A stretch of 64,000 nt of DNA, filler included, from Malassezia furfur (taxonomy: Eukaryota): NCBI GenBank assembly GCA_052055015.1. It is 3 parts of 3 records of this genome, joined end to end, with 100 filler letters (N's around TTAATTAATTAA, not from the genome) between each part and the next. Parts side by side here need not be neighbours in the genome. Positions count along the whole stretch, not along the records: positions 1 to 24,530 come from JBQJIT010000142.1; 2 more parts are not named here. One strand, given 5' to 3'. Positions within the stretch are counted from its first letter, which is position 1. Every line of letters starts with the position of its first letter. Positions 3,492 through 60,308 of this stretch are shown one piece after another. Both the position numbers and the translations under genes were made by a program. The notes under the pieces were generated by a model. It searched no databases. It saw only the letters and a list, made by a program, of their open reading frames with translations, and was not told the DNA's origin.

Positions 3492-3999
3492 TTACCGCAG
3501 CGACGCGCCCTGCCCGAGGTAGTGCGTGTTCTCGTCGCCGTACTTGCGGTGCAGAATGCCGATTTTGGGCTGCGCATCCGGCGCGTGCGGCGCGAGCGAG
3601 CTCAGCGCATCCAGCACCGCCGTGCGGGTGTCGTCCGACACGTACGAGGGGTCCGCGTCCGTCTTGTCGGTCGTCGACAGAGGGTTGGCGTCACGCACCA
3701 TGTGCATCGCACTCACGAGATGGTGCTGTCGGTTAGTATGCGCAAAAACTTACATTCCAGCGGCCCTTCACCTCTTCCCAGAACGTCGGGCCTGTCGGCT
3801 GGTATGCCGAGGCGAACGACGGCGTCCGCCGCGCGCCGGTCTCCTTGTCGAATTCGCTCACGCGGTCAAATGCGTCGATATCGCGGTCCATCTTGGCGAC
3901 CATGAACTGTGTCTGGTCCTTGAATGCAGCATTGGCCGCATACAGCAGCAGGCCAGCGGTGCCCACGCCGAGCACAGTAGGGATCGCCGAGTAGGGCAT
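3492..3999 (-). CDS. Small protein with N-terminal TM segment, possibly MICOS subunit Mic12-like; 2 exons
   Basis: MPYSAIPTVLGVGTAGLLLY...EEVKGRWN joined to HHLVSAMH... by a 28-nt intron at 3726-3753 (GTAAG...CTAAC CGACAG). The N-terminal TM plus KxxWN pattern recalls Mic12/Aim5 (inference). Confidence 0.5.
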
Positions 4000-5341: not shown

Positions 5342-7877
5342 TGTAGATATGTACGAAGGGGGAGCGAGCACCTGATCATCTTTTGCATCGGCATTGTCAT
5401 CGTCGTCGAGCTCGTCATCGTCCAGCGCAAAGGCGTTGTACAGGTCGCGTGTCTGGACGTCGGTGGGCATCGTACCAAGCCGGATTTCGTTTTCGTCGCT
5501 CGGGAGGTATTCGTAGCGCCGCATCGTGCGCAGCCGCCGGTAGAAGAAGAGCAGCAGGCCTACGCCCACCGCCAGTGCCACGCCTGCCGCCACCGCCAGC
5601 CACGTCGAGTGCCGTGTAACGCCTGCGAGATAGCCCGTGTCCGCTTCGGGCGTCTGCACATGGCTTCCGAACGACTGGTGTGTCTCGCCCAGGCGCGTGT
5701 GGTGGTCGTCAGGGAGCGCGTGAGTGGGCTTGTTGAGCGTGAGCGTGTTGGTCGGCGTCACCTCGGGGTGGTGCAGTACAGTGCTGCTCGGTGCACCCGA
5801 GAGCGTCAGGCTATGCTCTTCGGAGCCCTCGGGGAAGTCCCATGGCTTGGCCTTGCTGGCGTCGCGCGCAGCACCCCAAAGCGTGAGCGACCACCCCGTA
5901 AAATTGGCCGGCAGCCGGTTCTCGCGCCGGGCATCTGCGTGGTCCGACACCTGGAGGCGCCAGGTGCCGAGCATGTCCTCGCCCCAGTGCTTGAGCGACA
6001 TGAATGTCCACCCGGGGAACCCATCGCCGTCCGAGTCGTAGCGCCGCGGGCTCGCCAGCACGCTGCGTGTGCCGTGGGGCGAGAAAAGCTCGACTTGCAC
6101 GTCGCCGCGCCGATCGTGCTCGATCCAGACGGTGGCGGTGACGTGCTCAAGCGACATGAGGTTCGCCTGCTCCAGCATCGCGGGCGTCACCTCGATCGGC
6201 ACCGAGCTTGTCTGGTTCAACTCGAGGCGCGGCGTGCTGGTGTTATGCCGCGGCGACTCGAGCCACGCCTGCGGCGGCACCAGCTTATGTGCGAGTGAGA
6301 CGGCGAGCAGGCGCGTCGCCTGTATCATGCCGTATCCGTACTTGTGCGAGAATTTGCGCCCGACGCCGTTCGTCTCCCAGTCGGGGTCCTCGGCATTGAT
6401 CGGCTGCGCGGCAGCAATCAGGACGTGCTGTACGTCGCGCCACGTCAGCTCGGGGCGCAGCTCCAGTACAAGCGCAAGCATCCCTGCAACGAGCGGCGCC
6501 GCAGCGCTCGTTCCACCGTGCAGCGATGTGCACTGCGGTGCACCTCCGCGTGAAATATCGGTTGTGGTGATCGCCTGGCCGGCGCCTGAGCTGTAGCTTG
6601 ACGCGATGATCGCGCTGCACATCTCCGAGTAGTACGGGTGGTGACCGAGGTGGTCTACTGCGGCAATGGTCACGGTGTAGATCGAGTTAGTGTAGCCGTC
6701 AAAGTTGCACTGGTCGTCGCTCGCACCGCCGTTGCCGCCGGCAAACACATAGATGCTCCCGTTACCGTTGCGTCCGTTGTAGATTCCGTTTAGCAGCGCC
6801 TTGGCCACCAGGCCCTTGGGCGCATCCATGCTTTTGCCATTGTCTGGCGGCCCCCAACTGCAGCTGTAGATTGCGTTGGTGTCGTAGGCAAAGTTGAGCG
6901 CCGCAGCCTCGTCCGCGTCGGTGATGGCGCCGCTCAGGATGCGCACCGCTGAGACATGTGCGTCGGGTGCGACGCCAATGCCACACATGTCGTTACGCAC
7001 TGCCGCAATTTCGCCCGCACACCGCGTGCCATGCTGGTCGTCCGACAGACGCGGCTCAGGCAGCGGCGTGTGATCGTTGAAATCATACGAGCCTTTCTCG
7101 TCCTGATGTTAGCAACACACGTACAAAGTTGGCCTTGATGTCCGGGTGTGTAAAGTCGAGGCCGTCATCGAGCAGCGACACTGTTACGCCGCGCCCCGTC
7201 GCATTGCGCCAGATTTGCCCTAGCCCAAGGTCGTGCCCGGGATCCTCGACGTTGGCAAGGTGCCACTGCTGGAAAAAAAGCGGATCATGGATCTCAAATG
7301 CGTCGCGCAGCTTGGCGCTGACATTGAGCGGCACCGGTGCACGCACGGCATGGGCGCCGCTTGCCGGGCGCATCCAGGCCTCGGTCGCCGGCACGGGCGC
7401 ACGCAGCTCGGGGTACTCATCGCGCATGGTCGCCGGATCGTAGATGACGTCGCGCTTGTGCCGCTGACGGGGCACTTGGCGCTCGACGTCGCGCAGGGCG
7501 TCGGCGATGCATGCCTCCGACACGCACGACGCACCGGTGCAGCGCTTCGTGTGCGGCGTCGTGCGGCGGCGTAGGGCCGCGTACCGCGTCAGCACGGGGT
7601 CTTGCGCCTCCGGGACTTCGGAATACACAGACCTCCGCGCAAGCGCATCGCCCTTTTCGTGCTTGAGAAGCCAGTGGTGCGGCAGGGCCCCCACCTGCTC
7701 CACGAATTCGGCGTCGAGCGCCGCGGCGACGTGCTCCGGCGTGACGTCCGCACATGCGCCGCGCGGTACAATCTCAGCCGCATAGTAATGGTGCGTGTCG
7801 TAGGTGCGCTTCTGTGGATGCGCACCCACTACCACGCCCAGCGCTCCCGCGGCGAGCGCGAGCCAACACCGAAGCAT
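5324..7877 (-). CDS. KEX2: Kexin-like subtilisin proprotein convertase
   Basis: Signal peptide, propeptide with KR site, catalytic DDG / HGTRCAGE / GGTSAAAP, P-domain and TM. A 22-nt intron at 7103-7124 (GTACGT GTGTTG CTAAC ATCAG) joins ...IKANF to DEKGSYDF. Confidence 0.95.
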
Positions 7878-9699: not shown

Positions 9700-11140
9700 T
9701 CAGGCCAGCAGCTTCTCCACCTGCTCGAGTACCGCACGGCGGCTCGTGCCGCCGATCGCGTTGCGACGCTCGACACTCTGCTCGGGGTCCCATACGTCCT
9801 TCACGTCCGCTTCAAATGCAGGGTGTAGCGTGCGGAAGTCGTCCAGCGTCAGGTCGGACAGCTCACATCCACGGTCCTCGGCGAGCTTGACGGCCGACCC
9901 TGAGATGTGGTGCGTCTCGCGGAAGGGAATCTGGAGGGGTGAACACGGAGACGTACGCCTTTGCGGACCAGGTAGTCGGCCAGGTCGGTTGCGAGCATAT
10001 CGGTCGTCAGCGCGGCGCGCATCTTGGTCGCGTTGATCTAGGGTCAGTTCGACGGCAGGGGCCACGTACCGACATGGTGCTCACAACACCCGTTAGGATC
10101 TTGATGCAGGCGAGCGCCGTATCGACAGAGTCAAACATGGGCTCCTTATCCTCCTGCAGGTCTTTGTTGTACGTAGACGGAATGCCTTTAAGGGACATCA
10201 TAAAGCCGGACAGGTTGCCAAACAGGCGTCCGCTCTTCCCACGCAGCAGCTCGAGACTGTCGGGGTTCTTCTTTTGCGGCATGATCGAAGAACCTGTGCT
10301 GTAGGCGTCGCTGAGCTGCACGAAACCAAACTCGGCGCTCGAGTAGATGATCAAGTCCTCGGCAATCTTGCTCGCGTGCACCGAGAAGAGCGAGCACCAC
10401 ATCAGTGTTTCAATCACAAAGTCACGGTCGGCCACACTGTGCATGCTGTTGGGTCCCACGGTCTGGAAGCCGAGGTCCTTGGCGAGTGCCGCACGGTCCA
10501 GGCCGGCGAACGGATTGCCGGCCAGCGGCCCCGCACCCAGCGGCAGCATCGACACACGCGCACGCAGCGCCCGCAGGCGCTCCACGTCATACGCAAAATA
10601 GGTCGCGTGCGACAGCAGCAGGTGCGACCAGCGGATCGGCTGCGCACGCTGCAGGTGCGTATAGCCTGGCATGAGCACGTCGACCTCCTCGCGAGCGCGC
10701 TTGGCCATGACATGAACGAGCTCGGTCGCGAGCGATTCCAGCTCGTCCAGCTCATCCAGCAGCCACAGGCGCATGTCCGTCGCGACCTGGTCGTTGCGGC
10801 TGCGACCCGTGTGCAGCTTGCCGGCGACAGGCCCAATCAGTTCCTTGAGCCGGCGCTCGTTCGCTGTGTGGATGTCCTCGTCCTCCGGCTGTACCTGGAA
10901 CGAGTTGTTTCGCCACTCCTCGCCGACCTTGGTGAGGCCATCACAGATCGTCTGTGCCTCTTCCGCGGTAAGCACCTTGCAGCCAACGAGGGCCTTGGCG
11001 TACGCTTGCGACCCGCGGATGTCCTGCGCCCACATGCGCTTGTCGTATGAGTGCGACTCATTGAACGCATGCATCACAGGGTCGGTCTCGCCCGTGAAGC
11101 GACCACCCCAGAGCTTCTTCTTCGTAAAGTCTTCACCCAT
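9700..11140 (-). CDS. ARG4: Argininosuccinate lyase
   Basis: [17 protein letters not shown] and [12 protein letters not shown] signatures. Introns at 10038-10069 (32 nt) and 9931-9956 (26 nt) restore the C-terminus ...[15 protein letters not shown]. Confidence 0.96.
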
Positions 11141-11206: not shown

Positions 11207-12498
11207 CTACTGCGGAGCGCACTGGACATTTGGTTCTCCACCGGGGTTGTCGTACGTGTCCTCCTCCGGCGCACGCATCCGGTCGTTGGCGCCAAAGTCG
11301 GACAGATCTCCGGAGGCGACATGGACATCGTCGACCACAACATCCTCTTCCTCGGGCAGGTCTTCGCGTTTGGGCGGTAGAAGTTCGCGCAAAGCCTGAG
11401 TCAGTCATGTGCACGTACCGTTTCGTCCGCAGAGCGAGCCCACTCATTCGACGGGAATTCAATCTCGTACTTGAGATAGAGATCGCCGCGGCGGTCACGC
11501 ATACGCGGGTCATACATGCCCTCCCCACGCACAACGTCTACAGTGCCAGGCCGGACGACGTCGCCGCGCTGTTTAGTCACACGCAGACGGCGACCGTCCA
11601 GGTGCGTCAGGACGGTGCGCGAGAAGCCTTGCAGTGCCTCGAGCAGGTTGATGCGTACCGTCGCGCTCAGGTCGATGCCGCGCACTTCAAACGAGGCATG
11701 CGGCGTTTGCTTCAGCTCGAAAATCACCGACGCGGGTTTCGTGTCCGGCTGCGTAAGTAGCTTGCACGTACTAGCTGATCACCCTCGCCCTCAAACACGA
11801 TGTGCTGCCCATCGTACGCACCGCGCGGGATCTCGAGGCGCAGACGCGTCTTGACCGGCACCGTGCGGTTGCCCTTGCACTTTTTGCACGCCTCCTTCTC
11901 GCGGAACTTTTTGCCAGTGCCCTTGCACTCGCTGCACTGAGCCATGCTTTGCGCAATCATTCCGTTCCCAGCCTGCCGCTGCTCAAGCACGCGGCCTTTG
12001 CCGCCGCACGTCACACAGTCTTTCGGCTGCATGCCCGGCTTGCCACCCGTACCGTGACAATGCGAGCATACCACGTTCTTCTCAAGCGCAAAGTGTGCCG
12101 TCTTGCCATTGAACAGATCCTCGAGCGAGACCGTGTAGGGAATAATGGCATCTTGCGCACGGCGTGGCGGCGGAGGACCGCCAAAGCCAAAGGAGGGACC
12201 ACCGAACATTGACGCTGCGTGAGCACCAAAACATACCAAAGATGTCGTCCATGTCCGGGGCACCGCCGCGCGGGTCGCCCCCCTCGCCGTAGCGGTCGTA
12301 TGCGGCGCGCTCGTCGGGGTCCGAGAGCGTTTCGTAAGCCGCCGAGACCTCCTGGAAGCGCACCTGCGCGGTCTCATCGCCCGGGTTCTTGTCCGGGTGA
12401 TTTGCGAGCGACTGCTTCTTGTATGCCTTCTTAATATCGGCGTCCGTCGCGTCGGGCGCGACGCCCAGCACGTCGTACAACTTGGTATCCACCACCAT
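11207..12498 (-). CDS. Type I DnaJ/Hsp40 co-chaperone (Ydj1/Xdj1-like) with CaaX box
   Basis: J-domain with HPD, CxxCxGxG zinc repeats, and C-terminal CAPQ*. Introns at 12215-12236 (22 nt), 11749-11771 (23 nt) and 11396-11418 (23 nt). Confidence 0.92.
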
Positions 12499-12557: not shown

Positions 12558-14146
12558 ATGGCCGATTTTTACGTGCAAGCGGGCCGTGCGCTGCAGGACA
12601 TCCTGGCGCGCCGCGGCTCCATCAAGGCCATCACCGCCAAGGTGGGCGAAGGAGAGGATGATGCGCGTGCAGCAGGCAACGCTAAGCGCATCTTGGCACT
12701 CGTTGTGAACACACTCTCGTTCCGGACGACGCTGCAGACCATCCTCGCCAAGGTGGACGTCGCGGCGCGCGAACCCAGGTGGTTCGGACCAGGGAGCCCG
12801 CTGAACCGCACAAAAGGCGCCCTACCGCCTCCTGCCCCCACGCTTGCCTCGTGCATTTTGCTCGTGCTTATGCATGACCTGTTGTTTGCCTCACGCGGCA
12901 TCCAGGCCGCCAAGGCCTGGCCGCCGCGCGAGCGGCTCGAGCGACACCGGTCCCAGCTTCATGCGGAGCTTGTGCGTATCCAGCTGCGGATGGGCAAGTC
13001 ACATCCAGAGGAGCTGCGCAGCGGCGCCGAGGAGCGCCGCATCGCTGCTCGTATACCCCGCTGGTGCCGTGTGAATACGCTACGTGCGACGCCGGACACG
13101 GTCATACAAATGTTGACAGAGCAGGGGTGGACCTTGGAGGAGACAAACACCATTGCGAAAGAGTACGTTCAAAGCTAATGCAGGTCGGTGTTCGTGCGAT
13201 CGCGCCATGTGGACCACGTCTTTGCGTTCCACCCTGGGGCAACGGCGCGTCTGATGCAAACGGAGCTGTACAAGAATGGCACGCTGATCCTGCAGGACCT
13301 CGCAAGTTGCTTTCCTGCCGCGGTGCTTGATCCGCTGCGTGATGGGGCAGCTGAAGTGACGGCGATGGACGCGACGTCTGCGCCCGGGAACAAGACAAGC
13401 CACCTGAGTGCGCTGATGCAGGGCCGCGGATCGGTGTGTGGATGAGACTGATGCAGTTAACGGCTTTGGAACGTGCACCACAGCGTTATGCAACGCTCGT
13501 GCGGATGTTGAGCCGTGCGGGGTGCCTTGCGCGCGAGCATGGCAATGTGCATCCAAAGAAACTGGATTTTCTCTCTTTGGCACCGGCCGAGCAAAGCGCG
13601 ATTCAGTACATGCTGTTGGATCCCAGCTGCTCTGGCAGCGGAATCGTGAATCGCTTGGACTATCTTTCAGGAAAGGACGACGAGCAGGACAACGTGGAAG
13701 AGGTGGACCCCATCGAAAAGGGCAGTGCGCTTGCGACTCGACTCGCCAACTTGGCCTCGCTCCAGGAGCACATGATCCGGCACGCGATGACGTTCCCTGG
13801 CCTCGAGCGCTTTACGTACTCGACGTGCTCGATCCATGAGGAGGAGAACGAGGCGGTGGTATGCCAGGTGCTCGCGTCGGACGAAGCGAAGCAAGGGCGC
13901 TGGCGCCTAGCACCGCGCTCCGACGTGCTGCCGACATGGCCCGAGCGCGGCCGGCCTGCGGCGTGTGGGGGTGACGAAACCCGTGCAGAGTCCATGGTGC
14001 GGTGTACGCCTGGAGGGGCAGTCGATGTTCCACCCGGTACCGTGCACGTCGAGGCCTCTAATGGGTTCTTTGTATGCTGCTTTGTGCGCGCCCCGAGCGA
14101 GCCACGCAAGAAAAAGGCCAAGCGCGCCAAGGCGGTGTCTAGCTAG
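12558..14146 (+). CDS. RCM1: 25S rRNA cytosine-C5 methyltransferase (NSUN5/Rcm1)
   Basis: [51 protein letters not shown]. Introns at 13163-13183 (21 nt) and 13434-13456 (23 nt). Confidence 0.9.
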
Positions 14147-18094: not shown

Positions 18095-20085
18095 ATGGGG
18101 TCGGACAACCGGGCGCATGTGCGCCTACAGACCTTGCTGAACGTCTCTGCGACACACCTGCGGCACGGTGATGACCAGGAGCGGAGCGCAAAGCGTATGC
18201 GTATCTCGAGCCGCCCTGCGCCCTCCGTGCCCTCTGTCGAGAAGCGCACGGAGCGCGCACCCGCGCCGCAGGAACCGACAGCCACGGTCGACGAGCCGCA
18301 GGCCGCTGACGACTCGGACGACGAGGCGGCCAGTGACATCGCCGACGCGTTTCATACCCACTTTGGCGCCGAAAGTGCCGATCTCGCCGGCATTGATACG
18401 CGCGACATCCACTGGACTGCGCCCGAGCACGTCTCAGTGCTGGGCGGCGCGTCGGTGGTGCGCGCCGTGCGGCCGAAACAAAACGACGCCGCGGCACGGG
18501 TACGTTGCTTGTTCTTACACAGCCCCATGCACGCATCTGGAACGCGTTCAAGGCCAAGTATGGGCCGGTGTCGACCGCGCACCGCGAGTGGATCGACCTG
18601 GTAGGGCGTTACGTCGACGTGTGGGACGCGCGGGTCGCGCTCGACGAGCACGATGGGCTGCGCTCGGTGCTCTCGATGCACGCCATGAGCCATGTGGCGC
18701 GCACACGCCAGCGCATCCTCAAAGACAACGAGCGCCTAGCCAAGGCGGCGGCCGCCGCCAAGGCCGACGGCCATGACGACGAGCTGCCTGAGCTGCGCGA
18801 CCAGGGCTTCACGCGCCCCAAGGTACTGCTTCTTGTGCCCTTCCGCAACACGGCAAAGGCGTGGGTGCAGCGTCTGATCAACGTGTCGGGGTGCGACCAG
18901 GTGGAGCACAAGTCGCGCTTCCAGACCGAGTTTTCGCTCCCGCCCAACGCCGTGGACAAGCTGGCAGACCCGCAGTTTGCGTCACACTACCCCGCAGACC
19001 ACCGCAAGACGTTTGCGGGCAACATTGACGACAATTTCAAATTGGGCGTGAAGCTTACGCGCAAGACGCTCAAGCTGTACAGTGCGTTTTTCGAGAGCGA
19101 CGTGATCGTTGCGAGTCCCCTGGGCCTTCGCCTGCTGATCGAAAAGGAACAGTACGTCCCCACGCACTTACACAGCGAATCCGACTATCTCTCGTCGATA
19201 GAGATGGTATTGGTCGACCAAATGGACGTGATGCTCATGCAAAACTGGGACCATGTCAAGGTACGCCGCGCCGTCCTCACACAGTTTGTGCTTGAGCGCC
19301 TGAATGCCATCCCGAAGCAGGCGCACGATACCGACTTCTCGCGCGTGAAGCCGTGGTACTTGGACGACCAGGCGAAAAACCTGCGGCAGTCGATCTTGCT
19401 CTCGTCGTTCGACGCGCCTGAATTCCGCACCCTGTTCCACCATTTGCAAAACGTCGCCGGGCGCGTGCGCACCGTCGCGGCTGTCACTGCGGAGGACGCG
19501 ACGATCGCGTCCGTCGTGCCCGGCGTGCGCCAAACCTTCCAGCGGTTCGAGTGCGCCAACGCTCAGGGCGAGGCCGACGCGCGCCTCCACCTGTTTGTGC
19601 AAAAGACATTGCCGCACCTCGAGCGGTCGGCGGTGAGTGCGACGCATACCATGATCGTCATTCCGTCGTACTTTGACTTTGTCCGCGTCGAGGATCACTT
19701 CCGCAAGGCTGGTACGCTGACGTACGCAACGCTCTCCGAGTACTCCTCGAACAAGGATGTGTCGCGTGCGCGGCAGTCGTTCTTTGCCGGCAAAAAGAGC
19801 TTTTTGCTGGTTACCGAGCGCTTCCACTTTTATCGGCGGTACATGCTGCGTGGTGCGCGCACGATTGTGTTTTACGCGCCGCCGGAGCATGCATCGTACT
19901 ACCCCGAACTGATCAATGCTGCCCTGAGCCAGCGCAGCGACGACGACGAGGTGCCGGACCCGAGCGAAATCGGCGTCCAGGTGCTGTACTGCAAGTACGA
20001 CTTGCTCCGCCTCGAGCGCCTCGTCGGCTCCGCGCAGGCGCGCCGGATGGTCACCGACGCACGCGCCTCGTGGCGGTTTACGTAG
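18095..20085 (+). CDS. UTP25: U3 snoRNA-associated protein 25 (DUF1253)
   Basis: RDQGFTRPKVLLLVPFR, GNIDDNFKLG, ASPLGLR, DYLSSIE, MQNWDH, TERFHFYRRY. Introns at 18500-18522 (23 nt), 19152-19175 (24 nt, in-frame) and 19261-19284 (24 nt, in-frame). Confidence 0.93.
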
Positions 20086-20091
20086 GTATCT

Positions 20092-22242
20092 CTATAGGGT
20101 ATCCTTGGCGGCCAACGCCTCCCAGCGCCCGCGCACGTCGGACGGCAGCACGTGGAGTGGAAAGCGCGCAACGAGGCGCTGCGCAGCCTCACGCCCGCCC
20201 CACGCGTCCGCATCGACCGCGATCGGCCAGAGCACCTCGCCAAGCAGACGATCGGCTAGGGTGTCGTACGCGCCGCGCTCGCTTGCGCTCCAGGGCAGCG
20301 CCTCGGCGCCGTGGTAGTACACACCCCACCGCCCGAGGTTGAGCGCGAGCGTCGTCACCTCGCGCGCGACCAACGCCCGCGCGGCGGGCACATCGGGATG
20401 CATCGGCGCACCCGGCGCCGTGCGCGGCGCACGCAGCGCCGTGGCGAGCAGCTCGACGTGCGTCGCAAACGGCGCCAAGAACGCGCGGACCAGTGACTGG
20501 AAGCGCCAGCCGGTCGGATCGATCAAGTACGACACCTGCTCGATGAGCGCAAGCGCCGACGCCGTTTCGACCTCGCTCCACACGTCGTATGCCTGCTCGG
20601 CGACGGCGACAAGGCGGGGGACGACCACGTTGGAGACGAGCGTCGCGCTCGCCTCGCTGTCCCCGCCGCGTGCCTTCTGCGCATCGCGTGGGTCGGCGTC
20701 GACGTATGTGGTGATCTCGTGCTCAAACGCAAAGCCCTCGAGGCCGGCACGCGGGCCTTGGAGGCATACCTCCGTCTCGCCCGGTATGCGATTCGTGCAC
20801 CACAGCGGGTCCCACTGCACTAGTTCGTAGCGCGCGAAAAATTCCCATGCGTTGGCAAGTGCCAAGCCACCCCACGCCAAGTCGTACTCGGCGGGGTAGG
20901 TGGTGCGCCACGCGTGGAAACGTGCCGCCAGCGAACGCGGGTGCCATGAGCCCGTGTCGTCGGCCGCGAGCGGGCTACGAAACTCGGGCGCGTGCGTGTC
21001 GCGCAAGAGGCTAGCGACGTTTTCGGCAAGCTCGGTGCGCCCGGTCAAGAAAAGCTGCCGCTCGGCGGGTGCAAGGCGCTGGTCACTCGTGTCCGGCACG
21101 GCGTCCCACAGCGCGCGCCGTGCCATGCGCACGGGCGACGTCCCGTCACCGTCTGCATGCATCGGTCGGCGCTCATCGTCGCCGTGGGGCAGCCACAGCG
21201 TGGCGTCCGACACTCCGTGGAAAAGCGCCAAGGCGTCTTCAAGCGCGAGCGACCGCGCGCGCTGCCGCGACACCTTGCGGTCAACGAGTAGGCCCAGTGC
21301 ATTGTGTTCGAGCGTGTCAAGTAGGGGCAGTTTAACGTCCAGAAATGCCGCAAACGTCTCGACAAATGCGTCCAGCTCAGCAAACCACGCCGATTTGGCC
21401 TCGGCGGCCTCGACAGAACGCTTGAGTGCCGCCTCGTCCTGCTCAAGTGCATCGAGCGCGCGTTGCGTCGCGTCGCGGTGCTCTTGCTCTTCAGTAGCAC
21501 GCGCATCGAGCGTGGTGATCTGCGCCTGCAGACGTGCCAGGCACGACGTGGGCGTCGGCACCGGCGCCGTGAGCGGCACTGGCGCCGCGCGGTGCGGCGA
21601 TGGCGCGCGTTCCTCGCGCTCGACGCGCATACCAGGCATATCCATGCGGCTAAGCTGTGCCTGCTCCCATGCCTCTTGCTCCTCGCGCTCCTCAGGGTCC
21701 TCGTCCCGCACCAGCACTATGTCGGTATCCATCGGCATAGGCTCATGGATCGTCATGGATGCGGTGTCCGACGGCGCGCTCGGTGCGGCGCGGCGCGGCG
21801 GCTCACGCACGACGATTGCAATGTCCTCCTCCTCATCCGGGGCGCCCGTCGCTTCAGCAATCAGACTGCGCATCTGCCGACGCTGCTCCTGCTTCTGACG
21901 TCGCTCGGCATCACGGCCAAGTGGGATACGCTCCGTCGCACCCGTGTACTCGGCATGTTCGTCCTCACCGCTTCCAAGGTCGTCTTCCTCGCGCTGCAGT
22001 CCTGAGTATGGATGTGGGCCCTGGTAGGCGTCCGCAGCGGTGGTCATGGCGCGCGACGCGGCGCGGGGGGCGCTGAGGGGGATGAAATCCTCCTCCTCAT
22101 CGCCCTGGAGCGCGCGGACTGCCGCGCTCCGCTGCTCTGCGCGTTTTTTCTTCGCGGCTGCGATGGTGTCGGGCCCCGCGACGCCCGTATGATGGGTCTG
22201 GTCGCCATACCGGCTCTCGAGCAGCCGTGCGCGGTCGGCCAT
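20092..22242 (-). CDS. NTR2/GCFC-domain protein (GCFC2/PAXBP1-like spliceosome disassembly factor)
   Basis: EEDDLGSGEDEHAEYTGATERIPLG, WEQAQL, a coiled coil, and RFHAWRTTYPAEYDLAWGGL...WEFFARYELVQWDP, typical of the GCFC domain. Start at ATG 22242. Confidence 0.7.
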   Translation of the reverse strand: MADRARLLESRYGDQTHHTGVAGPDTIAAAKKKRAEQRSAAVRALQGDEEEDFIPLSAPRAASRAMTTAADAYQGPHPYSGLQREEDDLGSGEDEHAEYTGATERIPLGRDAERRQKQEQRRQMRSLIAEATGAPDEEEDIAIVVREPPRRAAPSAPSDTASMTIHEPMPMDTDIVLVRDEDPEEREEQEAWEQAQLSRMDMPGMRVEREERAPSPHRAAPVPLTAPVPTPTSCLARLQAQITTLDARATEEQEHRDATQRALDALEQDEAALKRSVEAAEAKSAWFAELDAFVETFAAFLDVKLPLLDTLEHNALGLLVDRKVSRQRARSLALEDALALFHGVSDATLWLPHGDDERRPMHADGDGTSPVRMARRALWDAVPDTSDQRLAPAERQLFLTGRTELAENVASLLRDTHAPEFRSPLAADDTGSWHPRSLAARFHAWRTTYPAEYDLAWGGLALANAWEFFARYELVQWDPLWCTNRIPGETEVCLQGPRAGLEGFAFEHEITTYVDADPRDAQKARGGDSEASATLVSNVVVPRLVAVAEQAYDVWSEVETASALALIEQVSYLIDPTGWRFQSLVRAFLAPFATHVELLATALRAPRTAPGAPMHPDVPAARALVAREVTTLALNLGRWGVYYHGAEALPWSASERGAYDTLADRLLGEVLWPIAVDADAWGGREAAQRLVARFPLHVLPSDVRGRWEALAAKDTL

Positions 22243-22488
22243 CGCGGCGGGTGCGTGGCCCTCCACCTTGGCCGAGGGGTCAGTGGACGCCACGTGACTA
22301 TGCGCCAAAGGGGCGCGCAGTGGCCAACGAGTGGGCCGTGTGGGTCGGCCTGCAGCTCCCTGCAGGGAACCGCATTCCTGGCAAATCGCAGTCCCGGGCG
22401 CGCGCGCCCTCGCAGGAGTCGCGATTTGCGTTCCGTGAGGGGGCTCCGTCAGGACCGTTTTCGCTCCTTCGTTCTCTGTCTCTCTCAG

Positions 22489-23763
22489 ATGGCTCGTGGA
22501 ATCCCGGGTCTTGACCGCGTTCGCGGAAAGTAGGTCGCCATGACTCACACCAGAAATGCCATCGGCACGCTCGTTCTCAGCGTCGGCGCCTTGCTTGGGG
22601 TGATCGGCTGGTTTACCTCGTTCATCTCGCAGTGTGTGGCTGAATCGCGGGACCATCTGCCGGTGCACCACGTGTGGTTCACCACCTGGGTGGACCTTGC
22701 ACTGGTCGTCGCGGTCTGCTTCCTTATCGCGGTCGGCTCAGTGGGCTTCTTCAAGCCGCTCCTCGTTCCTTTCTTGATCATTGCGATTGTGATGTCGGTA
22801 CTTGGTGCCGATCTCGGTCTGTACAGCGACTACGGCGACATGCAGGGCATGGGCGCCGGTTACCTGATCTTTGCGATCGCCGCAGTGATCTGGCTCCTGT
22901 ATCTCACCTACGCGGAGAGCACCGAAAGCGCCATCACCGGCGGCAAGCCGGCGGGTGCTTCGTTTGGCGGCGTTCCGGGTATCGGCGGCGGCATCAGCGG
23001 GATGACCAACGCCGCGACCAATGCCGGCGGCAACGTCACGGGCGGTATCTCGTCGCTCGGCAACACGGCGACGGGCGCATTCGGCGGCCTGCGCAACCGC
23101 TTCTCGCTCGGCAAGAACAAGGCCACGCAGGGCATGCAGGGCATGCAGGGCATGCAGAACCTTTCGGGCGGTGTCCCCAACGTCAGCATGGACCCCAGCG
23201 CACACGCGGCCAACATGGGTGTGCCAACGGGCGTCGTGGCGCACTCGCCGTCGGTCGATCCGTCTGCGGCGCAGATCCGCGCAGTGGACAGCTCGGTGAT
23301 GCCCGAGTCGGTTCCATCGCAGGCCTCGAACCTTTCGGCGGCCGGCATGGCGCCGAACGCGTCGGGCATGGCCCCGAGTGCCTCGGGCATGCTCCAGAAT
23401 GCGCCGACCGGCGGCCTCGACGCGAGCGCCGTGGCATCGTACCCGCCGCAGTACGCGGGCGACGGCTCGCTGGCACCCCCAATTGTGGGCAACGAGACGA
23501 TGTACTCGAGCGCGTCGCAGGCTGCTCCCTCGACCGGGTTCGCCGGCGTCGGCAGCGGCGTGTCCCCCGACAGTGCTACGCCGCGTCTGCAGCGTGCCGA
23601 GGCGCTCTACTCGTATAAGGCCAGTGAGGACGACCCCACCGAGATCTCGTTCAACAAAGGTGACATTCTTGAGATTATCGACTCGTCGGGCAAGTGGTGG
23701 CAGGCCTACCGGCCAAACGGCGAGCTTGGCATCGTGCCGAGCAACTACCTCCAGATGCTCTAA
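22489..23763 (+). CDS. SHO1: Sho1-like osmosensor (4 TM + C-terminal SH3)
   Basis: Four hydrophobic helices and an SH3 domain ([26 protein letters not shown]). The probable first exon from ATG 22489 is joined by a 24-nt stop-containing intron at 22530-22553. Confidence 0.85.
23128..23157 (+). repeat. Coding 9-bp tandem repeat (CAGGGCATG)x3 encoding QGM in SHO1
   Basis: Read directly from the sequence. Confidence 0.85.
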
Positions 23764-24222: not shown

Positions 24223-24530
24223 TTAGTGGTGGTGGTTGACGGGCTCGCCAAGGTACTCGAGCTGGTAGACTGGCGTCAGAGCAATTGGGTACGTACCACT
24301 GCCGCAGCGGGGGCAGCGCGTGTGCTCCTTCTCGAGGCTCATGTTCAGCCAGAGCGTCTCGTGCGACTCGGCAGGGAAGCCGGTGCAGCCGATGTGGTGC
24401 TCGTGGTACTGTCGTCAGACACGCGCCTATCAACATACCATGCTCCGGACCTTGATCGGGTCCTTCATGGTGCCAAGACGGTCCGCAGGCAGCGGCTCCT
24501 GCTCGAACACATCCACACCCTCGAGCTTGC
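24223..24530 (-). CDS. COX4: Cytochrome c oxidase subunit 4 (COX5B family), 3' part; 5' end lost at gap
   Basis: Not in the ORF track. Spliced translation KLEGVDVFEQEPL..GTMKDPIKVRSM/YHEHHIGCTGFPAESHETLWL...RCPRCGS/VYQLEY..HHH*, with introns at 24409-24438 (30 nt) and 24270-24296 (27 nt). Zn-binding Cys/His residues are conserved. Confidence 0.9.
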
Positions 24531-24630: not shown

Positions 24631-26235
24631 CCGCCTGCGCGCGCCGAGGCCCGGCTGCAGGCGCAGCAGCGCAGCGCAACCACGACGCTGCTTGCTGGCG
24701 CACGCGCGCGCCGCGGGCAGAGTGCACGGCAGCAGCGCAGCCAGGAGCGTCTCGCTCTGCGCACGGCCGCCAAGGGCAGTGGTGGTGCGACGCGTGCGCA
24801 GCTCATGCAGATGCTCACCATGACGCACGCCGAGCCCGCCGAGGAGAAGCCCGCGCCCAAGCCAAAAAAGAAGCGTGCGCCGATCAAGTTCACGACCGGT
24901 GCCGAGGACAACTCAGAGGACGAGGAGAACAAGGCGGCGCCCGCCCCCGCCCGCGACGACGACGAGTGGTGCGAGGTGGACGAGGAGGAGGAAAAGCGGC
25001 TGCGCGCCGCCGAGCGTGCCGAGGCGCGGCGCAAGCGCCGCGAGGCCGAGGAGCGCGAGCGCATCGAGATGTTCAAAAAGCGCCCCATCCGCTCCATGAG
25101 TCTGGCCGACCTGTCCTCGGCCAAGAAACCCGCGGACGCCGCGCCCGCACCCGCACCCGCACCCGACGGCGAGCAGGGCCACCCGACGCGCGGCCTGCTC
25201 TCGACGCTCTTCCACGCGCCGGCCGAGATGCGCCGCGGGAGTGTCGCCGCACCTGGCGTGGCGGGCGCCTCGCGCGCGCCATCCGCACGCCCGCGGCACC
25301 CCCTGTCGGGCAAGACGATGAGTCTCGCGGCGCTGCCTGCGCGCGCGGGCGCCGACGCCGAGGCACGCAACACGTCCACGCCGACGCTCAGCACCGAGAC
25401 GCCGGCGCTGCGGCGCAATAGCAGCATGGCGCATACCCCCTTGGCGTCGCGGAGCAAGAGCGCGATCGCGCTTCCGCTGCTCAACCTGACCTCGCTGCGC
25501 TCCACGACCGGGCGCAGCGGGATCGACGTGCGCCGCATGCCAAGCACCACCTCGCTCGTCTCGGGCGGCTCGGTGGGCAGTGAGGAGGACGGCACGTCGA
25601 CCCCCGGCGAGGTGCACGCGACCATGGCGCCGCCCGAGCGCGTCAAGAGTAGCACGGCGCTCGCGCGCCTTGCGGCGCTCGCGCACCGCGGCCCGGACAC
25701 GGCGAGCCACACGGATCTGCGCGCGTCGCTCGGCTCGGTGCTGACACCGGGCGAGCCCGAGCGACAACGCAGCGATACGTCGATGTCGCGCACGTCGAGC
25801 CAGACGTGGAGCCCCTCGGAGGAGGACGGCCCGTCGCTGGCGGTGCAGGTCGACCAGGACGCGCCGGAGGACTACTTCAACCTGAAGCGCGTGCCGCAGG
25901 CGACGCCGCCGCAGACCCGGCCGCAGTCGCCCGTCTCGCCGCGGCAAACGCAGAGCATGACGGAGCTGCCGATCCCGGCGCCGACCCTGCAGTCGCCGCG
26001 CACGCTGCGGCGCAACATGCTGCGCGACGAGCTGTCCGAGAGTTTGCGCGAGAACCTCTTGTGGGAGCGCCAGTCACGGGCGCGGCTCCTCGGCCTTGGC
26101 GTGCCGCCCAGCGAGGACAGCAGCGGCTCGAGCACGCCGGTGGCCCCGCGGCGCAGCGTGTCGCAAGCCGGGCCCACGAGCACGACCGAGTTACGCCGCT
26201 ACGACGAGCAGTCGTTCCATCACAAGGGGTGGTGA
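24631..26235 (+). CDS. DUF3295-domain protein (Mks1-like regulator), 5'-truncated
   Basis: Frame open from the gap. The C-terminal SPRTLRRNMLRDELSESLRENLLWERQ...FHHKGW* matches the DUF3295 pattern. Confidence 0.7.
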   Translation, partial: PPARAEARLQAQQRSATTTLLAGARARRGQSARQQRSQERLALRTAAKGSGGATRAQLMQMLTMTHAEPAEEKPAPKPKKKRAPIKFTTGAEDNSEDEENKAAPAPARDDDEWCEVDEEEEKRLRAAERAEARRKRREAEERERIEMFKKRPIRSMSLADLSSAKKPADAAPAPAPAPDGEQGHPTRGLLSTLFHAPAEMRRGSVAAPGVAGASRAPSARPRHPLSGKTMSLAALPARAGADAEARNTSTPTLSTETPALRRNSSMAHTPLASRSKSAIALPLLNLTSLRSTTGRSGIDVRRMPSTTSLVSGGSVGSEEDGTSTPGEVHATMAPPERVKSSTALARLAALAHRGPDTASHTDLRASLGSVLTPGEPERQRSDTSMSRTSSQTWSPSEEDGPSLAVQVDQDAPEDYFNLKRVPQATPPQTRPQSPVSPRQTQSMTELPIPAPTLQSPRTLRRNMLRDELSESLRENLLWERQSRARLLGLGVPPSEDSSGSSTPVAPRRSVSQAGPTSTTELRRYDEQSFHHKGW

Positions 26236-33800: not shown

Positions 33801-35433
33801 GGAGGAAGTGCTGCGTATCTACGTTTGCACGGTGCCGCACCTCCCACGGACCGCGCGTGCATTTGCCGAGTCGCTCGAGCAGAGTCTCACGCCGCTCGTG
33901 AGCCGGTGCACACTGCGCCCCGACGCTACCGCACTCGAGGCGCTTGTTGCGTGTTTCTGTGCAGTGATCGAGCACCAAACGCACCATACGGCGCTGCTGC
34001 AGCGCACGTTTGACGCTTGTGCCGCGCGGCTGACGGCGCTTGCGGCGGACGCGACGCCCACGACGCCGCTCGACCGTGCGGCCTACCTCGCGATGGCGAT
34101 GAGCGCACTGCTGTGCCGCTACGGCGCTCGCTCCAACACCGAGGTGCACGCGGTGTTCGACGCGCTGCTCACGCTGTACGCGCGCCCTGCGTTTGTGCAC
34201 GCAGCGCTCGCGGCACTAGGGCAGGTGCTGTGTGCGCGCCCCGCGCTTTTCCTTGACGTGCGTATTACGCACGCACTTGATGCCGCGCTGGGCGATGCGC
34301 CTGCGGCCCAGCATCTCGTGCTGCGGGTGCTGCTCGACTACCTCGAGAGCGACGCAGGCACGGACACTGCAGTGCAGCGCGCAGCCGACGCTCCCGCCGA
34401 CGTCCTGAGCGAGCTGCGCGGCACCACCGACGAACACGCCGACACGGGCATCGCGTCGGCGCTCGTGCAGCGGTACGCACCGGCGGTGTTGCGCGCGACG
34501 CTGGACGTGCAGCACGCGGCGCTGCAGCGCACGGCGCTTGAGATTGTACAGGTCGCCGTGCTGCAGGGCCTGGCGCACCCGCTGCAGTGCCTGCCGTACC
34601 TCGTCGCGCTTGAGACGGCCGACGATGCGGCACTGCGCCGCCGTGCGCTCGGACTGCATTGGCACCTCGTCACAAAGCACGCCACGCTCCTCGCGACGCA
34701 CTACGTCGAGCCGATGCGTGCGGCGTTTGCGTTTGACGCCGCGCAGCACACTGAGCGCCCACGCGGCTTCCGCGAGGACGACGAACCGGTCGCGCTCTTC
34801 CAGGGATGGTATGAGATGGTGCGCGAGCAGCGCAGCGCACGCCACGCCTTTTTGCGTGCACTCGTGCGCCTATGCGAGATGCCACACGCCGCGGCGTGTA
34901 CGGAAGCCGATGTGGCGTTGGCCGCGTTCGCCATCGAAAACCTCGCGACGCTCGAATACAAGGTGCTTGACGAGCCGCTGTGGGTGCTGCACGAGCTGCA
35001 CCGCCTGCATGCCGTGTTTGGCATGCAGGTGATCGGCGCAGCCGAGCGGCACCTGCGCCAACGCGGTCCCAGCCCCCTCACCGACGAGGAGGCGGAGGAC
35101 GCGGGCGACGGCGGCAGCGCAACGGCCGACGACGCGACGCGTGGGCTCGCACATGCCGCGGTCGTGGTGCAGGCAGCGCAGGCGCTGCGTTCGCACCTCC
35201 AAAAAGTGTACAAACTCTCGGATGCGTACGTCGCTCGCTCACACAGCAAATACGAAAAGTACCTCGCCGATGGCCGCCCCGAGCGCCTCGCCCCCGCGCA
35301 CCGTACGCTTGCAGACCCGCGGCAGGCGGTGCCGGTGCTGGCGCTTGCGCGGGTGCACAGCGACTCGCAGGCGGTCGTGGTGCTCGAAGAGCTGGTTGAC
35401 GCCGCGCACGATGGCGCGCTCGATCTCGATTAG
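30879..35433 (+). CDS. SCC2: Cohesin loader Scc2/NIPBL
   Basis: LFLPDWPAAPVLL, HEAT repeats (RTRALRAL, DTSASVRE, DAAVGVRRRVL), SALVQRY, QGLAHPLQCLPYLVALET. Introns at 33759-33780 (22 nt) and probably 35226-35246 (21 nt, in-frame). Confidence 0.88.
31059..31109 (+). repeat. Coding 15-bp minisatellite (GACGCGCCGACCAGC) x3.4 encoding DAPTS in the SCC2 N-terminus
   Basis: Read directly from the sequence. Confidence 0.85.
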
Positions 35434-50072: not shown

Positions 50073-50822
50073 CTACGGGTCTACGTCCATAGCGCCACTC
50101 GCGCCCTTGCGGCGCTGCTTCTTCTTGGGCTTCTTCGTCGTCGCGCTGCCCTCCATCTGGAGACGCTGGGCGAGCGGCAGACTCGACAGGCGGTCCTTGA
50201 GCGCGGTCGCCTTGGCGGGCTTCGCCTCCGGCTGGCCCTTGCTCGCGAGGATCTTTTCCGTCTCCTTCAGGTAGCGCGCCTCGGCTTCGGCGAGGCGGCG
50301 ACGCACGGCAATAGGCAGCGATGCATCGCTGCTGCGCGCCGTCGACGACACGTCCGCACCCGCCTTGGCCTGCGCAGCAGGCGCGGCCTTGACGACCTTG
50401 GCGGGCGGCGGCATGGACACCTTGGGCGCAGGCTCGGAGCCTTGCATGGTCACCTGGAGCACGCGTCCGTCGGCAAGCACGCCATCAAACTTGCGGCATG
50501 CGGCGAGCGCGTCGTTGCGCTGCTCAAATGCAACCTGGAAGGCCACCGCGTTGCTCGCGAGGTTCGGCAGGCGGTACCCACGCACTTCGACGACGCGCCC
50601 GATCGGGTCAAACGTCAGACGCACGTCCTCGAGCGACGTGCCCTTGACGAGGTTTGCGACGACGACCCACGTTGGCCCCGATGCGCCCTTGATATTCACG
50701 CTGCGCTGCACGTCAGCTTACACTCTTGCACGTACCTCCCGCTCGTACGGTGCGCTGCGCTGCGCACCCGACGCACGGCGGCGCGGCGCACGCGCGCGGC
50801 TCTCGCGCATTTCCACGTCCAT
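50073..50822 (-). CDS. Single-RRM RNA-binding protein
   Basis: VVVANL..GTS.EDV...FDGVLADGRVLQV RRM pattern. First exon MDVEM...APYERE joined by a 30-nt stop-containing intron at 50706-50735. Confidence 0.7.
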
Positions 50823-58391: not shown

Positions 58392-59472
58392 TTAGAGGCG
58401 AGCCGAAGGGCCGTTGACATAGGCATACGTGCTGCGGATGCGCTCCTCAGCTTCCTTCTCGATGCGCGCGACGAGTTCCTTGCACGTAGGCTGCGTAAGT
58501 CACCACATACGTACAATATCGTGGATCAAGCCAAGCGTCTGCCCTGCCGTCCAGACGCCTGCATCTGGATCACCCTTTGTGTACACGGTGCGGCCGCGTT
58601 GACCAGAAACGAGCGGCTGAATCTCCTTGAATTCGACGTGCCGTGCCTCCAGCTCGAGAACCTCCTTGGTAATTTTGTTTTTGAACACGCGCGTCGTGTT
58701 GCGCAGACTGCGCAGAATATGCGCCGTATCGCGCTCACCCGACTGCACAATAACCTGCTTGATCTTGTCGTCGATCTCACTCTCCTTCGTGGCCATGAAA
58801 CGCGTACCCATGTTCGCACCCACGGCTCCAAGCGCCAGCGTTGCAGCCAGTCCACGCCCATTCGCGACACCACCGGACGCAATGAAAGGTGCCTTGACCT
58901 GGTCGGCCGCCAGCGCAAGCAGCACAAGCCCACCAATGTCGTCCTCACCCGGGTGTCCTGCGCATTCCCCTGTGTGTTAGTGCCGTGGTGATGCCAAGGT
59001 ACTTACAGCCATCAATGCTCAGCATGTCTGCACCCAGACGCAGCGCGGTCTGTCCATGACGGATGGCCGTACACTTGTGGATTACGAACGCACCGGCGTC
59101 CTTAAGAATCTTGATGACCGGCCCCGGATTGTTCCCCGCAGTCTCAAAAATACGCACGCCAGCTTCAAGAGCCGCCCGCGCATACCCTTCATAGTCCGGC
59201 GGAACAACTGCAGGGAGAAGAGTGATGTTGACGCCGAAAGCGCCATACTTGGTGCGCTCTTTGGCAATCTCGGGGTCGATAAGCGAGCGCGCGTGCTCAA
59301 TAGCTCGCTTGAGCTCCTCCGGCGAAGGCTGGGTCAGGGCGGTCATGATACCCAGTGCACCAGCGTTTGAAGCAGCAGCCGCAAGGGCAGGCGTGCCAAC
59401 CCACTGCATGCCGCCCATCACCAGCGGCACACGCAGGCCCAGCGTTTCAGTCAGGTACGTCTTAATCGGCAT
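58392..59472 (-). CDS. Nitronate monooxygenase / 2-nitropropane dioxygenase family flavoprotein
   Basis: GGMQWVG, DG/WECAGHPGEDD, ASGG..GRG, MGTRF. Introns at 58970-59006 (37) and 58491-58514 (24). Confidence 0.9.
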
Positions 59473-59557: not shown

Positions 59558-60308
59558 ATGAATATTTTTCGGCTGTTAGGTGACCTGTCGCACATTGCGT
59601 CGATCCTGATTTTGATCCATAAGATCACGACGTCACGGTCAGCGCGAGGTAAGAGCGTGCGCACTGACAGCAGGCATTTCGTTCAAGACACAGGCGCTGT
59701 ACGCGACCGTCTTTGTCGCGCGCTACCTTGCGCTGTTTTCGCCCCCTGTGTTCTACCTGATTGTCATGAAGATCTTCTTCCTGGCAAGCTCATTCTATGT
59801 GATTTACTTGATGAAGTTCAAGTTCCGGTACGTGCGTGACGACTTATGCAGCTCGCGCGTGGAAGTGGACATTGACACGATCCGGCTTGAATATTTGCTG
59901 GGCGGGAGCGCAGTGCTGGCCCTGCTGTTCAACTACAAGTTTACTTTGCTCGAGATCCTTTGGTCGTTCAGCATTTTCCTGGAGGCTGTCGCGATCCTCC
60001 CGCAGATGTTCCTGCTGCAACGCCTGGGCGAGGCTGAGACGATCACGACGCATTACATCTTTGCACTCGGCGCTTACCGCACCATGTATCTGTTGAACTG
60101 GGTGTACCGGTACGTTGCATCAAAGCTGACGCAGTCTCATCTTCGAACACAAGCACCATTTCGACTACATTGCGTTCATTGCCGGTCTCGTACAGACCGG
60201 GCTGTATGCGGACTTTTTCTACAGTACGTTGTGCACTTAGCACCATGAACTAACGCAGTCTATTACGAGAAGGTCCTGCATGGCAAAAAATTCGAGCTGC
60301 CTGCGTGA
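59558..60308 (+). CDS. ERD2: ER lumen protein-retaining (HDEL/KDEL) receptor
   Basis: MNIFRLLGDLSH, GISFKTQ, LEAVAILPQ, YRTMYLLNW, KFELPA*. Introns at 59649-59673 (25), 59828-59851 (24), 60110-60134 (25) and 60224-60258 (35). Confidence 0.95.

Follow-up and report, generated by a model that had tools for sequence, protein, structure and literature searches.

How a sequence of only 21 nucleotides (nt) could be removed as an intron, and how its 3' AG would be chosen, is the question raised by positions 13163 to 13183 of the stretch of Malassezia furfur DNA analysed here. This stretch, which we call the window, spans 64,000 nt with positions counted along its whole length, filler included; positions 1 to 24,530 come from JBQJIT010000142.1. 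The 21 nt lie within a gene for an RCM1/NSUN5-like protein, and we consider it likely that they form an ordinary GT-AG (U2-type) intron of that gene, built to a mini-intron architecture in which the AG would be set by its distance from the branch point.

A candidate 21-nt intron in RCM1

The gene is composed as follows (all on the + strand).

12558-13162: exon 1, RCM1/NSUN5-like, with the ATG at 12558, ending in phase 2 (...AAA GA)
13163-13183: intron 1, 21 nt, GTACGT-TCAAAG-CTAAT-GCAG
13163-13168, 13169-13174, 13175-13179 and 13180-13183: donor, spacer, CTAAT and GCAG of intron 1
13184-13433: exon 2, with Pfam NSUN5_fdxn-like profile positions 46-78 and RsmB-F positions 9-33
13434-13456: intron 2, 23 nt, GTGTGT...CTGAT GCAG, with predicted branch A at nucleotide 18 and a 5-nt tail (branch A to 3' G)
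13457-14146: exon 3 to the stop codon, with Pfam Methyltr_RsmB-F profile positions 37-158

In intron 1 a 6-nt spacer separates the donor hexamer from CTAAT; the predicted branch A, the second A of this motif, is intron nucleotide 16 (window position 13178) and lies 5 nt from the 3' G. Because the intron is in phase 2 and its length is a multiple of three, the branch motif contributes an in-frame TAA (13176-13178), and unspliced mRNA would therefore be truncated, its translation reading ...KEYVQS and then a stop. Exon 1 matches Pfam NSUN5_N and positions 1-33 of the NSUN5_fdxn-like profile, and is 94% identical to a 25S rRNA (cytosine-C5)-methyltransferase of M. brasiliensis, while the RsmB-F profile continues across intron 2, from positions 9-33 in exon 2 to 37-158 in exon 3. 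Removing both introns (21 nt and 23 nt) gives a conceptual coding sequence of 1545 nt in frame, and the spliced protein is gap-free at junction 1 against all eight of the eight Malassezia orthologues and colinear at junction 2 with six of them, the remaining two looking mis-annotated there. At the intron 2 position M. yamatoensis protein P0002 has a 9-residue insertion (VGLCHSNDQ), and M. brasiliensis protein P0001 lacks about 9 residues present in the other orthologues; both anomalies look like mis-annotations of mini-introns.

The 21 nt have the properties of a GT-AG intron: GT...AG termini with the donor consensus, a branch motif near the AG, and a reading frame and colinearity that are restored by removal. 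U12-type introns carry an RTATCCTT donor and a TCCTTAAC branch site, and this class was rejected on the basis of the donor GTACGT and the branch motif CTAAT.

Introns of KEX2 and ERD2

Two further genes provide introns of the same kind that can be placed by homology.

7103-7124, - strand: KEX2 intron, 22 nt, phase 0, GTACGT GTGTTG CTAAC ATCAG, predicted branch A at nucleotide 16, 6-nt tail
59649-59673, + strand: ERD2 intron 1, 25 nt, GTAAGA GCGTGCGCA CTGAC AG CAG, predicted branch A at nucleotide 19
59828-59851, + strand: ERD2 intron 2, 24 nt, ending CTTAT GCAG, predicted branch A at nucleotide 19, 5-nt tail, length a multiple of three, no in-frame stop

In alignment with yeast Kex2 (2id4), the upstream exon of KEX2 runs up to residue 76, and the third residue of the downstream exon matches residue 79. 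The original prediction had given the RCM1 and KEX2 introns (21 and 22 nt) a branch A at nucleotide 16, a gap of only 6 nt between donor and branch motif, and a branch point 5-6 nt from the 3' end; this geometry can be read directly from the sequence, with tails of 5 nt in RCM1 and 6 nt in KEX2. For ERD2, exon 1 aligns to residues 1-29 of KDELR2 and exon 2 begins at residue 32, ending at residue 82; in exon 3 the seventh residue corresponds to KDELR2 residue 90. Removal of four mini-introns from ERD2 yields a product identical at 213 of 213 residues to the NCBI M. furfur protein P0012. An ORF-style (open reading frame) protein of the window, P0013, reads through the intron at 59828-59851 (...FRYVRDDLCSSRVE...).

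The same sites in other Malassezia

Six metagenome loci carry the syntenic block Dsc3-KEX2-calnexin-ARG4-DnaJ-RCM1-GH85 from other Malassezia lineages. At the identical RCM1 codon (after AAAGA, phase 2) the intron 1 site holds 26 nt in locus L004 and 25 nt in L005 and L006, and the intron is missing from L003 at the same site. RCM1 intron 2 is absent in L003 to L005, and in these three loci the KEX2 exons abut exactly at the insertion point of the 22 nt in the window; the ARG4 intron, 32 nt in the window (10038-10069), is 30 nt in L005 and does not exist in L003 or L004. In addition, three ORF-style proteins, with 95%, 85% and 78% identity to RCM1 exon 1, contain the read-through sequences ...EYVGRLTQ, ...TYVLFLTQ and ...EYAAWLTQ. 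Back-translated from protein and not taken from DNA, these would imply 22-nt introns ending CTNAC-N-CAG in closer lineages.

The RCM1 intron of L004 (10592-10617) has a non-consensus AAG acceptor 6 nt past the branch A. Frame and colinearity are kept only by this AAG, and a CAG 13 nt past the A breaks the frame.

Restored frame, colinearity, presence or absence in relatives, and the closer lineages are four independent lines that argue for excision, and on these lines the RCM1, KEX2 and ERD2 mini-introns are almost certainly real. It is extremely improbable that the 21 nt of RCM1 are not excised and instead represent translated sequence, a lesion in a pseudogene or a fault of the assembly. Such a reading could appeal to the fact that excision is deduced from sequence and that no public M. 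furfur RCM1 protein is among the search matches, but the in-frame TAA is flanked by conserved, domain-bearing RCM1 exons, the splice signals stand in perfect form exactly at the frame break and are common to about 34 sites, and other species have orthologous introns at the same RCM1 codon.

One intron site thus ranges from absent to 21-26 nt across Malassezia species with its module kept; this variable length of a site whose module is conserved points to selection on architecture and not on sequence. The most frequent tail length in the other Malassezia loci is 6-7 nt, compared with 5 nt in the window, which therefore places M. furfur at the compact end of the genus.

A mini-intron architecture with spacing limits

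A striking excess of the complete pattern is evident from comparison with shuffled sequence. GTACGTN{4,30}CTNAYN{2,3}AG has 20 matches in the window (19 distinct acceptors), whereas 100 dinucleotide shuffles give a mean of 0.27 and a maximum of 2. With any distance of 2-12 nt allowed between branch A and 3' G, 48 matches have 5 nt against 11.6 expected from the shuffles, and distances of 3 and 4 nt are under-represented, with 3 and 4 matches, respectively, against about 11. With any spacer of 0-30 nt allowed, lengths of 6, 7, 8 and 9 nt have 3, 3, 10 and 6 matches against about 0.6 each, and counts exceed the background only from 6 nt upward, that is, from a branch A at nucleotide 16. Six matches of a donor plus CTNAY have spacers shorter than 6 nt; five were set aside as secondary GT sites nested in longer curated introns, and the sixth lies near 24794 (+). 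The window contains no convincing intron below 21 nt among GT...AG segments of 10-20 nt that join coding-like frames where read-through is blocked: 15 candidates of this size were rejected, none having a GTRNGT-type donor followed by CTNAY and several lying opposite large ORFs on the other strand.

A curated set of 34 candidate introns was hand-picked by the donor, CTNAY and AG pattern together with frame heuristics. Lengths run from 21 to 37 nt, with 27 of the 34 at 21-28 nt and 22 at 21-25 nt. The branch A falls at nucleotide 16 in three, 17 in two, 18 in nine and 19 in six, and higher in the rest; tails are 5 nt (20 introns), 6 nt (7), 7 nt (5), 8 nt (1) and 9 nt (1). The acceptor is CAG in 33 and the donor GTACGT in 22. 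The branch motif is CTNAC/T, with its C, T and A present in 34/34 (partly by construction), and the base preceding the branch A is unconstrained (G 12, A 9, T 7, C 6). Homology verifies nine members of the set (two in RCM1, one each in KEX2 and ARG4, the DnaJ intron 11749-11771, and four in ERD2); six of these have a 5-nt tail and three a 6-nt tail.

These data suggest an architecture in which a donor hexamer, usually GTACGT, is followed by a spacer no shorter than 6 nt and then by a fused branch/3'-site module, CTNAY-N-CAG, with RCM1 intron 1 probably sitting at its lower size limit in M. furfur. Owing to the fusion of the module, the predicted branch A is most often 5 nt, and more rarely 6-9 nt, away from the 3' end, and the predicted lariat loop would be at least 16 nt, most commonly 18-19 nt.

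The placement of the branch point is itself motif-predicted, and it is very unlikely, in our estimate, that another adenosine of the RCM1 intron (A9-A11 or A15) is used while CTNAY is conserved for some other reason. Since the position before the branch A is unconstrained, either of the two adjacent As of CTAAY could bulge; against this, CTNAY keeps a constant position with respect to the AG, as seen in the excess at 5 nt (48 against 11.6), which is free of construction, and it agrees with the CTAAC of yeast and Yarrowia. CTNAY likewise matches the human branch consensus yUnAy, as given in the title of PMC2367711.

The GTACGT donor consensus carries a C at +4. A C at this position would mismatch the usual pairing partners in U1 and U6.

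The intron pattern is also matched antisense, at 3736-3760 (+) versus 3726-3753 (-) and at 58972-59008 (+) versus 58970-59006 (-). Such antisense false positives in motif scans arise because, in the reverse complement of a GTAAGT...CTAAC intron, ACTTAC mimics the branch motif and GTTAG the donor.

Choice of the 3' AG

In 33 of the 34 curated introns the acceptor is the first AG past the branch A; ERD2 intron 1 is the sole case in which a nearer AG is skipped. This intron ends in CTGAC-AG-CAG, as the original prediction had noted in proposing it as a test of a distance rule, and so offers a proximal AG (59669-59670) 3 nt and a distal CAG (59671-59673) 6 nt past the predicted branch A. Only the distal AG, ending at 59673, reproduces the public M. 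furfur protein (P0012, 213/213) and colinearity with KDELR2; the proximal AG gives a product of 214 aa that is not identical. The distal AG also places the conserved G of G-I-S-x-K at ERD2 residue 31, as in KDELR2, and this G is at residue 31 in 84 of the 93 motif-bearing homologues (120 retrieved). Minor use of the AG at 59670 alongside the distal one may nevertheless occur. Together, statistics and homology support a rule by which the 3' splice site (3'SS) would be the first AG to occur 5 nt or more beyond the branch A, nearer AGs being passed over.

A steric floor could account for such a rule. The G of the 3'SS pairs with intron G1 and its A(-2) pairs with the branch A (PMC12707134, in the part available), and at exon ligation the AG would have to make both pairings across a few looped-out nucleotides: a 5-nt tail leaves three of these, and a 3-nt tail only one.

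The claim that the AG is chosen by distance from the branch point stands in part, on the 33 of 34 introns, on ERD2 and on the statistics. Its second half, that the choice does not depend on U2AF, is unsupported: Yarrowia has the same fused module, and there U2AF1 has been proposed to set it. It is true that only 1-4 nt separate CTNAY from CAG, which leaves no room for a pyrimidine tract, and that no displaced tract was found in the downstream exons (pyrimidine fraction 0.51 versus 0.45). In budding yeasts, according to the accessible text of PMC4202332, U2AF1 has been proposed to constrain the short distance between branch and 3'SS, and by the proposal cited there this distance is longer in species that have lost U2AF1; PMC8496845 likewise ties U2AF1 to stringent 3'SS recognition and a tight distance. 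A fixed distance could thus equally be a U2AF/SF1 footprint.

By this alternative, which we regard as possible though short of an even chance, the 5-nt tail would be the mark of early recognition, with SF1/BBP on CTNAY and the small subunit of U2AF on the adjacent CAG reading the fused module as a single unit, no pyrimidine tract being needed. The CAG acceptor in 33 of 34 curated introns fits such a footprint, as does the Yarrowia module, described as a combined branch point/3'SS sequence in what is available of PMC2911113 and having one nt between ACTAAC and CAG/TAG in 72.5% of introns in the corresponding part of PMC13309789. However, the causal link between U2AF1 and the distance is called unproven in the text of PMC4202332 at hand, and a steric rule fits as well, both for the skipped AG of ERD2 at 3 nt and for the AAG of L004 at 6 nt. 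In this scheme it is U2AF that would choose the AG, the opposite of what the original prediction had supposed, and such joint recognition with SF1 at an early stage is a serious competitor to a distance rule that acts purely at the second step.

Possible crowding of U1 and U2

The separation from G1 to the branch A at nucleotide 16 is 15 nt in both the RCM1 and KEX2 introns. For human spliceosomes, the portion of PMC6692369 available gives about 50 nt as needed for assembly and about 52 nt as spanned in the B complex. The argument that U1 and U2 small nuclear ribonucleoproteins (snRNPs) would be crowded agrees with these published human limits and is, by analogy, reasonable and plausible, since 15 nt is far below the roughly 50 nt required in human.

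As developed from the original prediction, the view is that assembly would be non-canonical: U1 and U2 cannot share 21-25 nt, so that binding would be sequential or the early complexes re-shaped, and the AG would be selected purely by second-step distance. We consider this rather unlikely. It is consistent with there being no pyrimidine tract inside the intron or displaced into the exon, and the same conjecture has been made for the 15-nt introns of Stentor (PMC9505925). It is compatible with other explanations rather than exclusive of them. Organisms with even shorter introns keep all small nuclear RNAs (snRNAs) and most core proteins (PMC9505925), or keep U2AF1/2 and a canonical U2 (PMC13644364), and the strong U1-type donor and U2-type branch consensus in M. 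furfur suggest that both snRNPs are still used.

The separation of 15 nt is about a third of the human B-complex span, and the M. furfur spliceosome may therefore assemble through re-shaped or sequential complexes. That M. furfur excises introns with this donor-branch gap through such early complexes, with the bounds on spacing reflecting the minimal RNA path of the catalytic core, is in our view a doubtful proposition. If true, the lower bounds of 6 nt on the spacer and 5 nt on the tail would directly report that minimal path, and M. furfur, a yeast whose branch motifs are unambiguous, would make the problem of minimal introns accessible to genetics.

Weighing the preferred reading

Several points weigh against an ordinary GT-AG intron with a distance-set AG as the account of 13163-13183. 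The support for it consists of sequence, statistics, frame and homology, with excision and the branch nucleotide both predicted. No NCBI M. furfur RCM1 protein is among the protein-search matches (two length classes); the public M. furfur model of RCM1 may be missing, wrong, or simply absent from the collection searched. Within the curated set, 25 of the 34 introns are identified by motif and frame, and the pattern by which the set was selected misses introns with other branch motifs. All the spacing limits derive from one 64-kb window, and the third candidate with a branch A at nucleotide 16 (35226-35246) has a length divisible by three, contains no stop, lies inside an open ORF and is perhaps no intron at all. 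Nor is the 5-nt floor absolute, since in 2 of 1950 introns of Yarrowia the branch motif overlaps the 3' motif, as assigned by motif inference in the part of PMC13309789 available.

Other introns and genes of the window

Eleven of the curated introns have lengths that are multiples of three, and five of these contain no in-frame stop, so that their retention would add 7-9 residues in frame; among the five only 59828-59851, listed above as ERD2 intron 2, is confirmed as spliced by homology.

19152-19175, + strand: stop-less curated intron
19261-19284, + strand: stop-less curated intron
24270-24296, - strand: stop-less curated intron
35226-35246, + strand: stop-less candidate intron, 21 nt, GTACGT CGCTCG CTCAC ACAG, branch A at nucleotide 16, a motif match only, inside the SCC2/Nipped-B ORF
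59828-59851, + strand: stop-less ERD2 intron 2

At 50701-50735 (-) a 30-nt intron, GTACGT...CTGAC GTGCAG, is followed by CGCAG; use of this second CAG, 5 nt downstream of the acceptor, would shift the frame.

The window is gene-dense eukaryotic DNA with a GC content of about 0.59-0.67 (per 4 kb). Pfam names its ORFs as ISWI, Dsc3, KEX2, calnexin, ARG4, a DnaJ protein, NSUN5/RCM1, GH85, UTP25, NTR2, COX5B, Miro, Nipped-B, BMS1, a ClpB-type ATPase and ERD2; these are typical fungal housekeeping genes. The ORF at 20095-22737 (-) carries the Pfam NTR2 domain (Nineteen complex-related protein 2), the sole spliceosome-related family matched by Pfam within the window; NTR2 is a spliceosome-disassembly factor. 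A protein at 50076-50705 (-), considered as a candidate splicing factor, has only weak RRM matches to SRp46 and TIA-1 (E about 1e-3). Rfam gave no snRNA match at gathering score in the window or in L003 to L005, and the scan thus provides no snRNA gene, in the window or in the relatives' loci, for co-variation with the donor and branch motif.

Significance

Introns of 21-25 nt, of which a third have a length divisible by three and some lack an in-frame stop, are an annotation hazard: they are easily read through or mis-joined, and ORF-style protein calls do read straight through Malassezia mini-introns. The window also yields numerical limits, namely a branch A at nucleotide 16 or later, a tail of at least 5 nt, and use of the first AG beyond it. 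Because the branch motif is explicit here, unlike in ciliates, spacer-deletion experiments would be interpretable. The chief value of the locus is as a clean experimental system for the geometry of minimal introns, together with the annotation warning, and its interest is modest.

Comparison with known systems

Very short Malassezia introns are already published, and the limits described here are not new in kind. Introns of M. sympodialis average 30 bp, 99% of them with RNA-seq support, in the available part of PMC5389616; annotation of M. restricta set the minimum intron length at 15-20 (PMC6473144); and the available text of a review that also covers genetic approaches in Malassezia mentions the "very short introns" of the genus (PMC7426719). 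In the NCBI M. furfur ERD2 protein all four mini-introns of the gene are already spliced out, with the distal AG as acceptor in the first. The words "branch", "lariat" and "spliceosom" do not occur in the accessible text of PMC5389616, nor does "Malassezia" in PMC13644364 (2026), which names exceptions below 30 bp. No published study of where the branch point lies in Malassezia introns, or of limits on their spacing, came up in a search that subscription journals lay outside, and this absence is weak evidence.

The closest likeness for the 3' half is Yarrowia lipolytica, of which the CTAAC-N-YAG module is a long-known hallmark, according to what is available of PMC2911113. RCM1 intron 1 has this type of module, CTAAT-G-CAG, with one nt between the motif and YAG; a single nt stands between branch motif and acceptor in 20 of the 34 curated introns, compared with 72.5% in Yarrowia (PMC13309789, same part). 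Both place the branch A 5 nt before the end of the intron and lack a pyrimidine tract, and in the available text of PMC2911113 a CTAAC-type motif gives in-frame stops in phase-2 introns whose length is a multiple of three, as does the TAA of RCM1. Yarrowia differs in being an ascomycete with intron size bins up to 1826 nt (in the part of PMC13309789 cited), in having CTAAC where Malassezia has CTNAC with a free middle base, and in that only its 3' half is compact, whereas the half from 5' splice site (5'SS) to branch is also squeezed in M. furfur, to a spacer of 6-10 nt.

Short introns in human (Smu1/RED; SPF45, U2AF-independent) share a short 5'SS-branch distance, a truncated pyrimidine tract and a need for extra factors, but "short" there means 56-80 nt in the excerpts available. 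Ciliates, myxozoans, dicyemids and microsporidia are nearer in scale, having introns below 30 nt within a narrow length range; at the scale of the window, too, most curated introns are below 30 nt with a narrow peak. The same steric puzzle for U1 and U2 and the same sharply looped lariat arise in these organisms (PMC9505925, PMC13644364). In Stentor coeruleus, introns are 15-16 nt, with the predicted branch A at nucleotide 10 of 15 and 5 nt from the 3' end (PMC9505925), so that the loop is 10 nt there as compared with at least 16 nt in M. furfur. The motifs of these tiny introns are weak and AT-rich, whereas those of M. furfur are strong and yeast-like (CAG in 33/34, GTACGT in 22/34, with CTNAY invariant by selection of the set), and the host is a GC-rich basidiomycete yeast. 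Each half of the M. furfur architecture is thus known separately, the 3' half in Yarrowia and the 5' half in ciliates and myxozoans.

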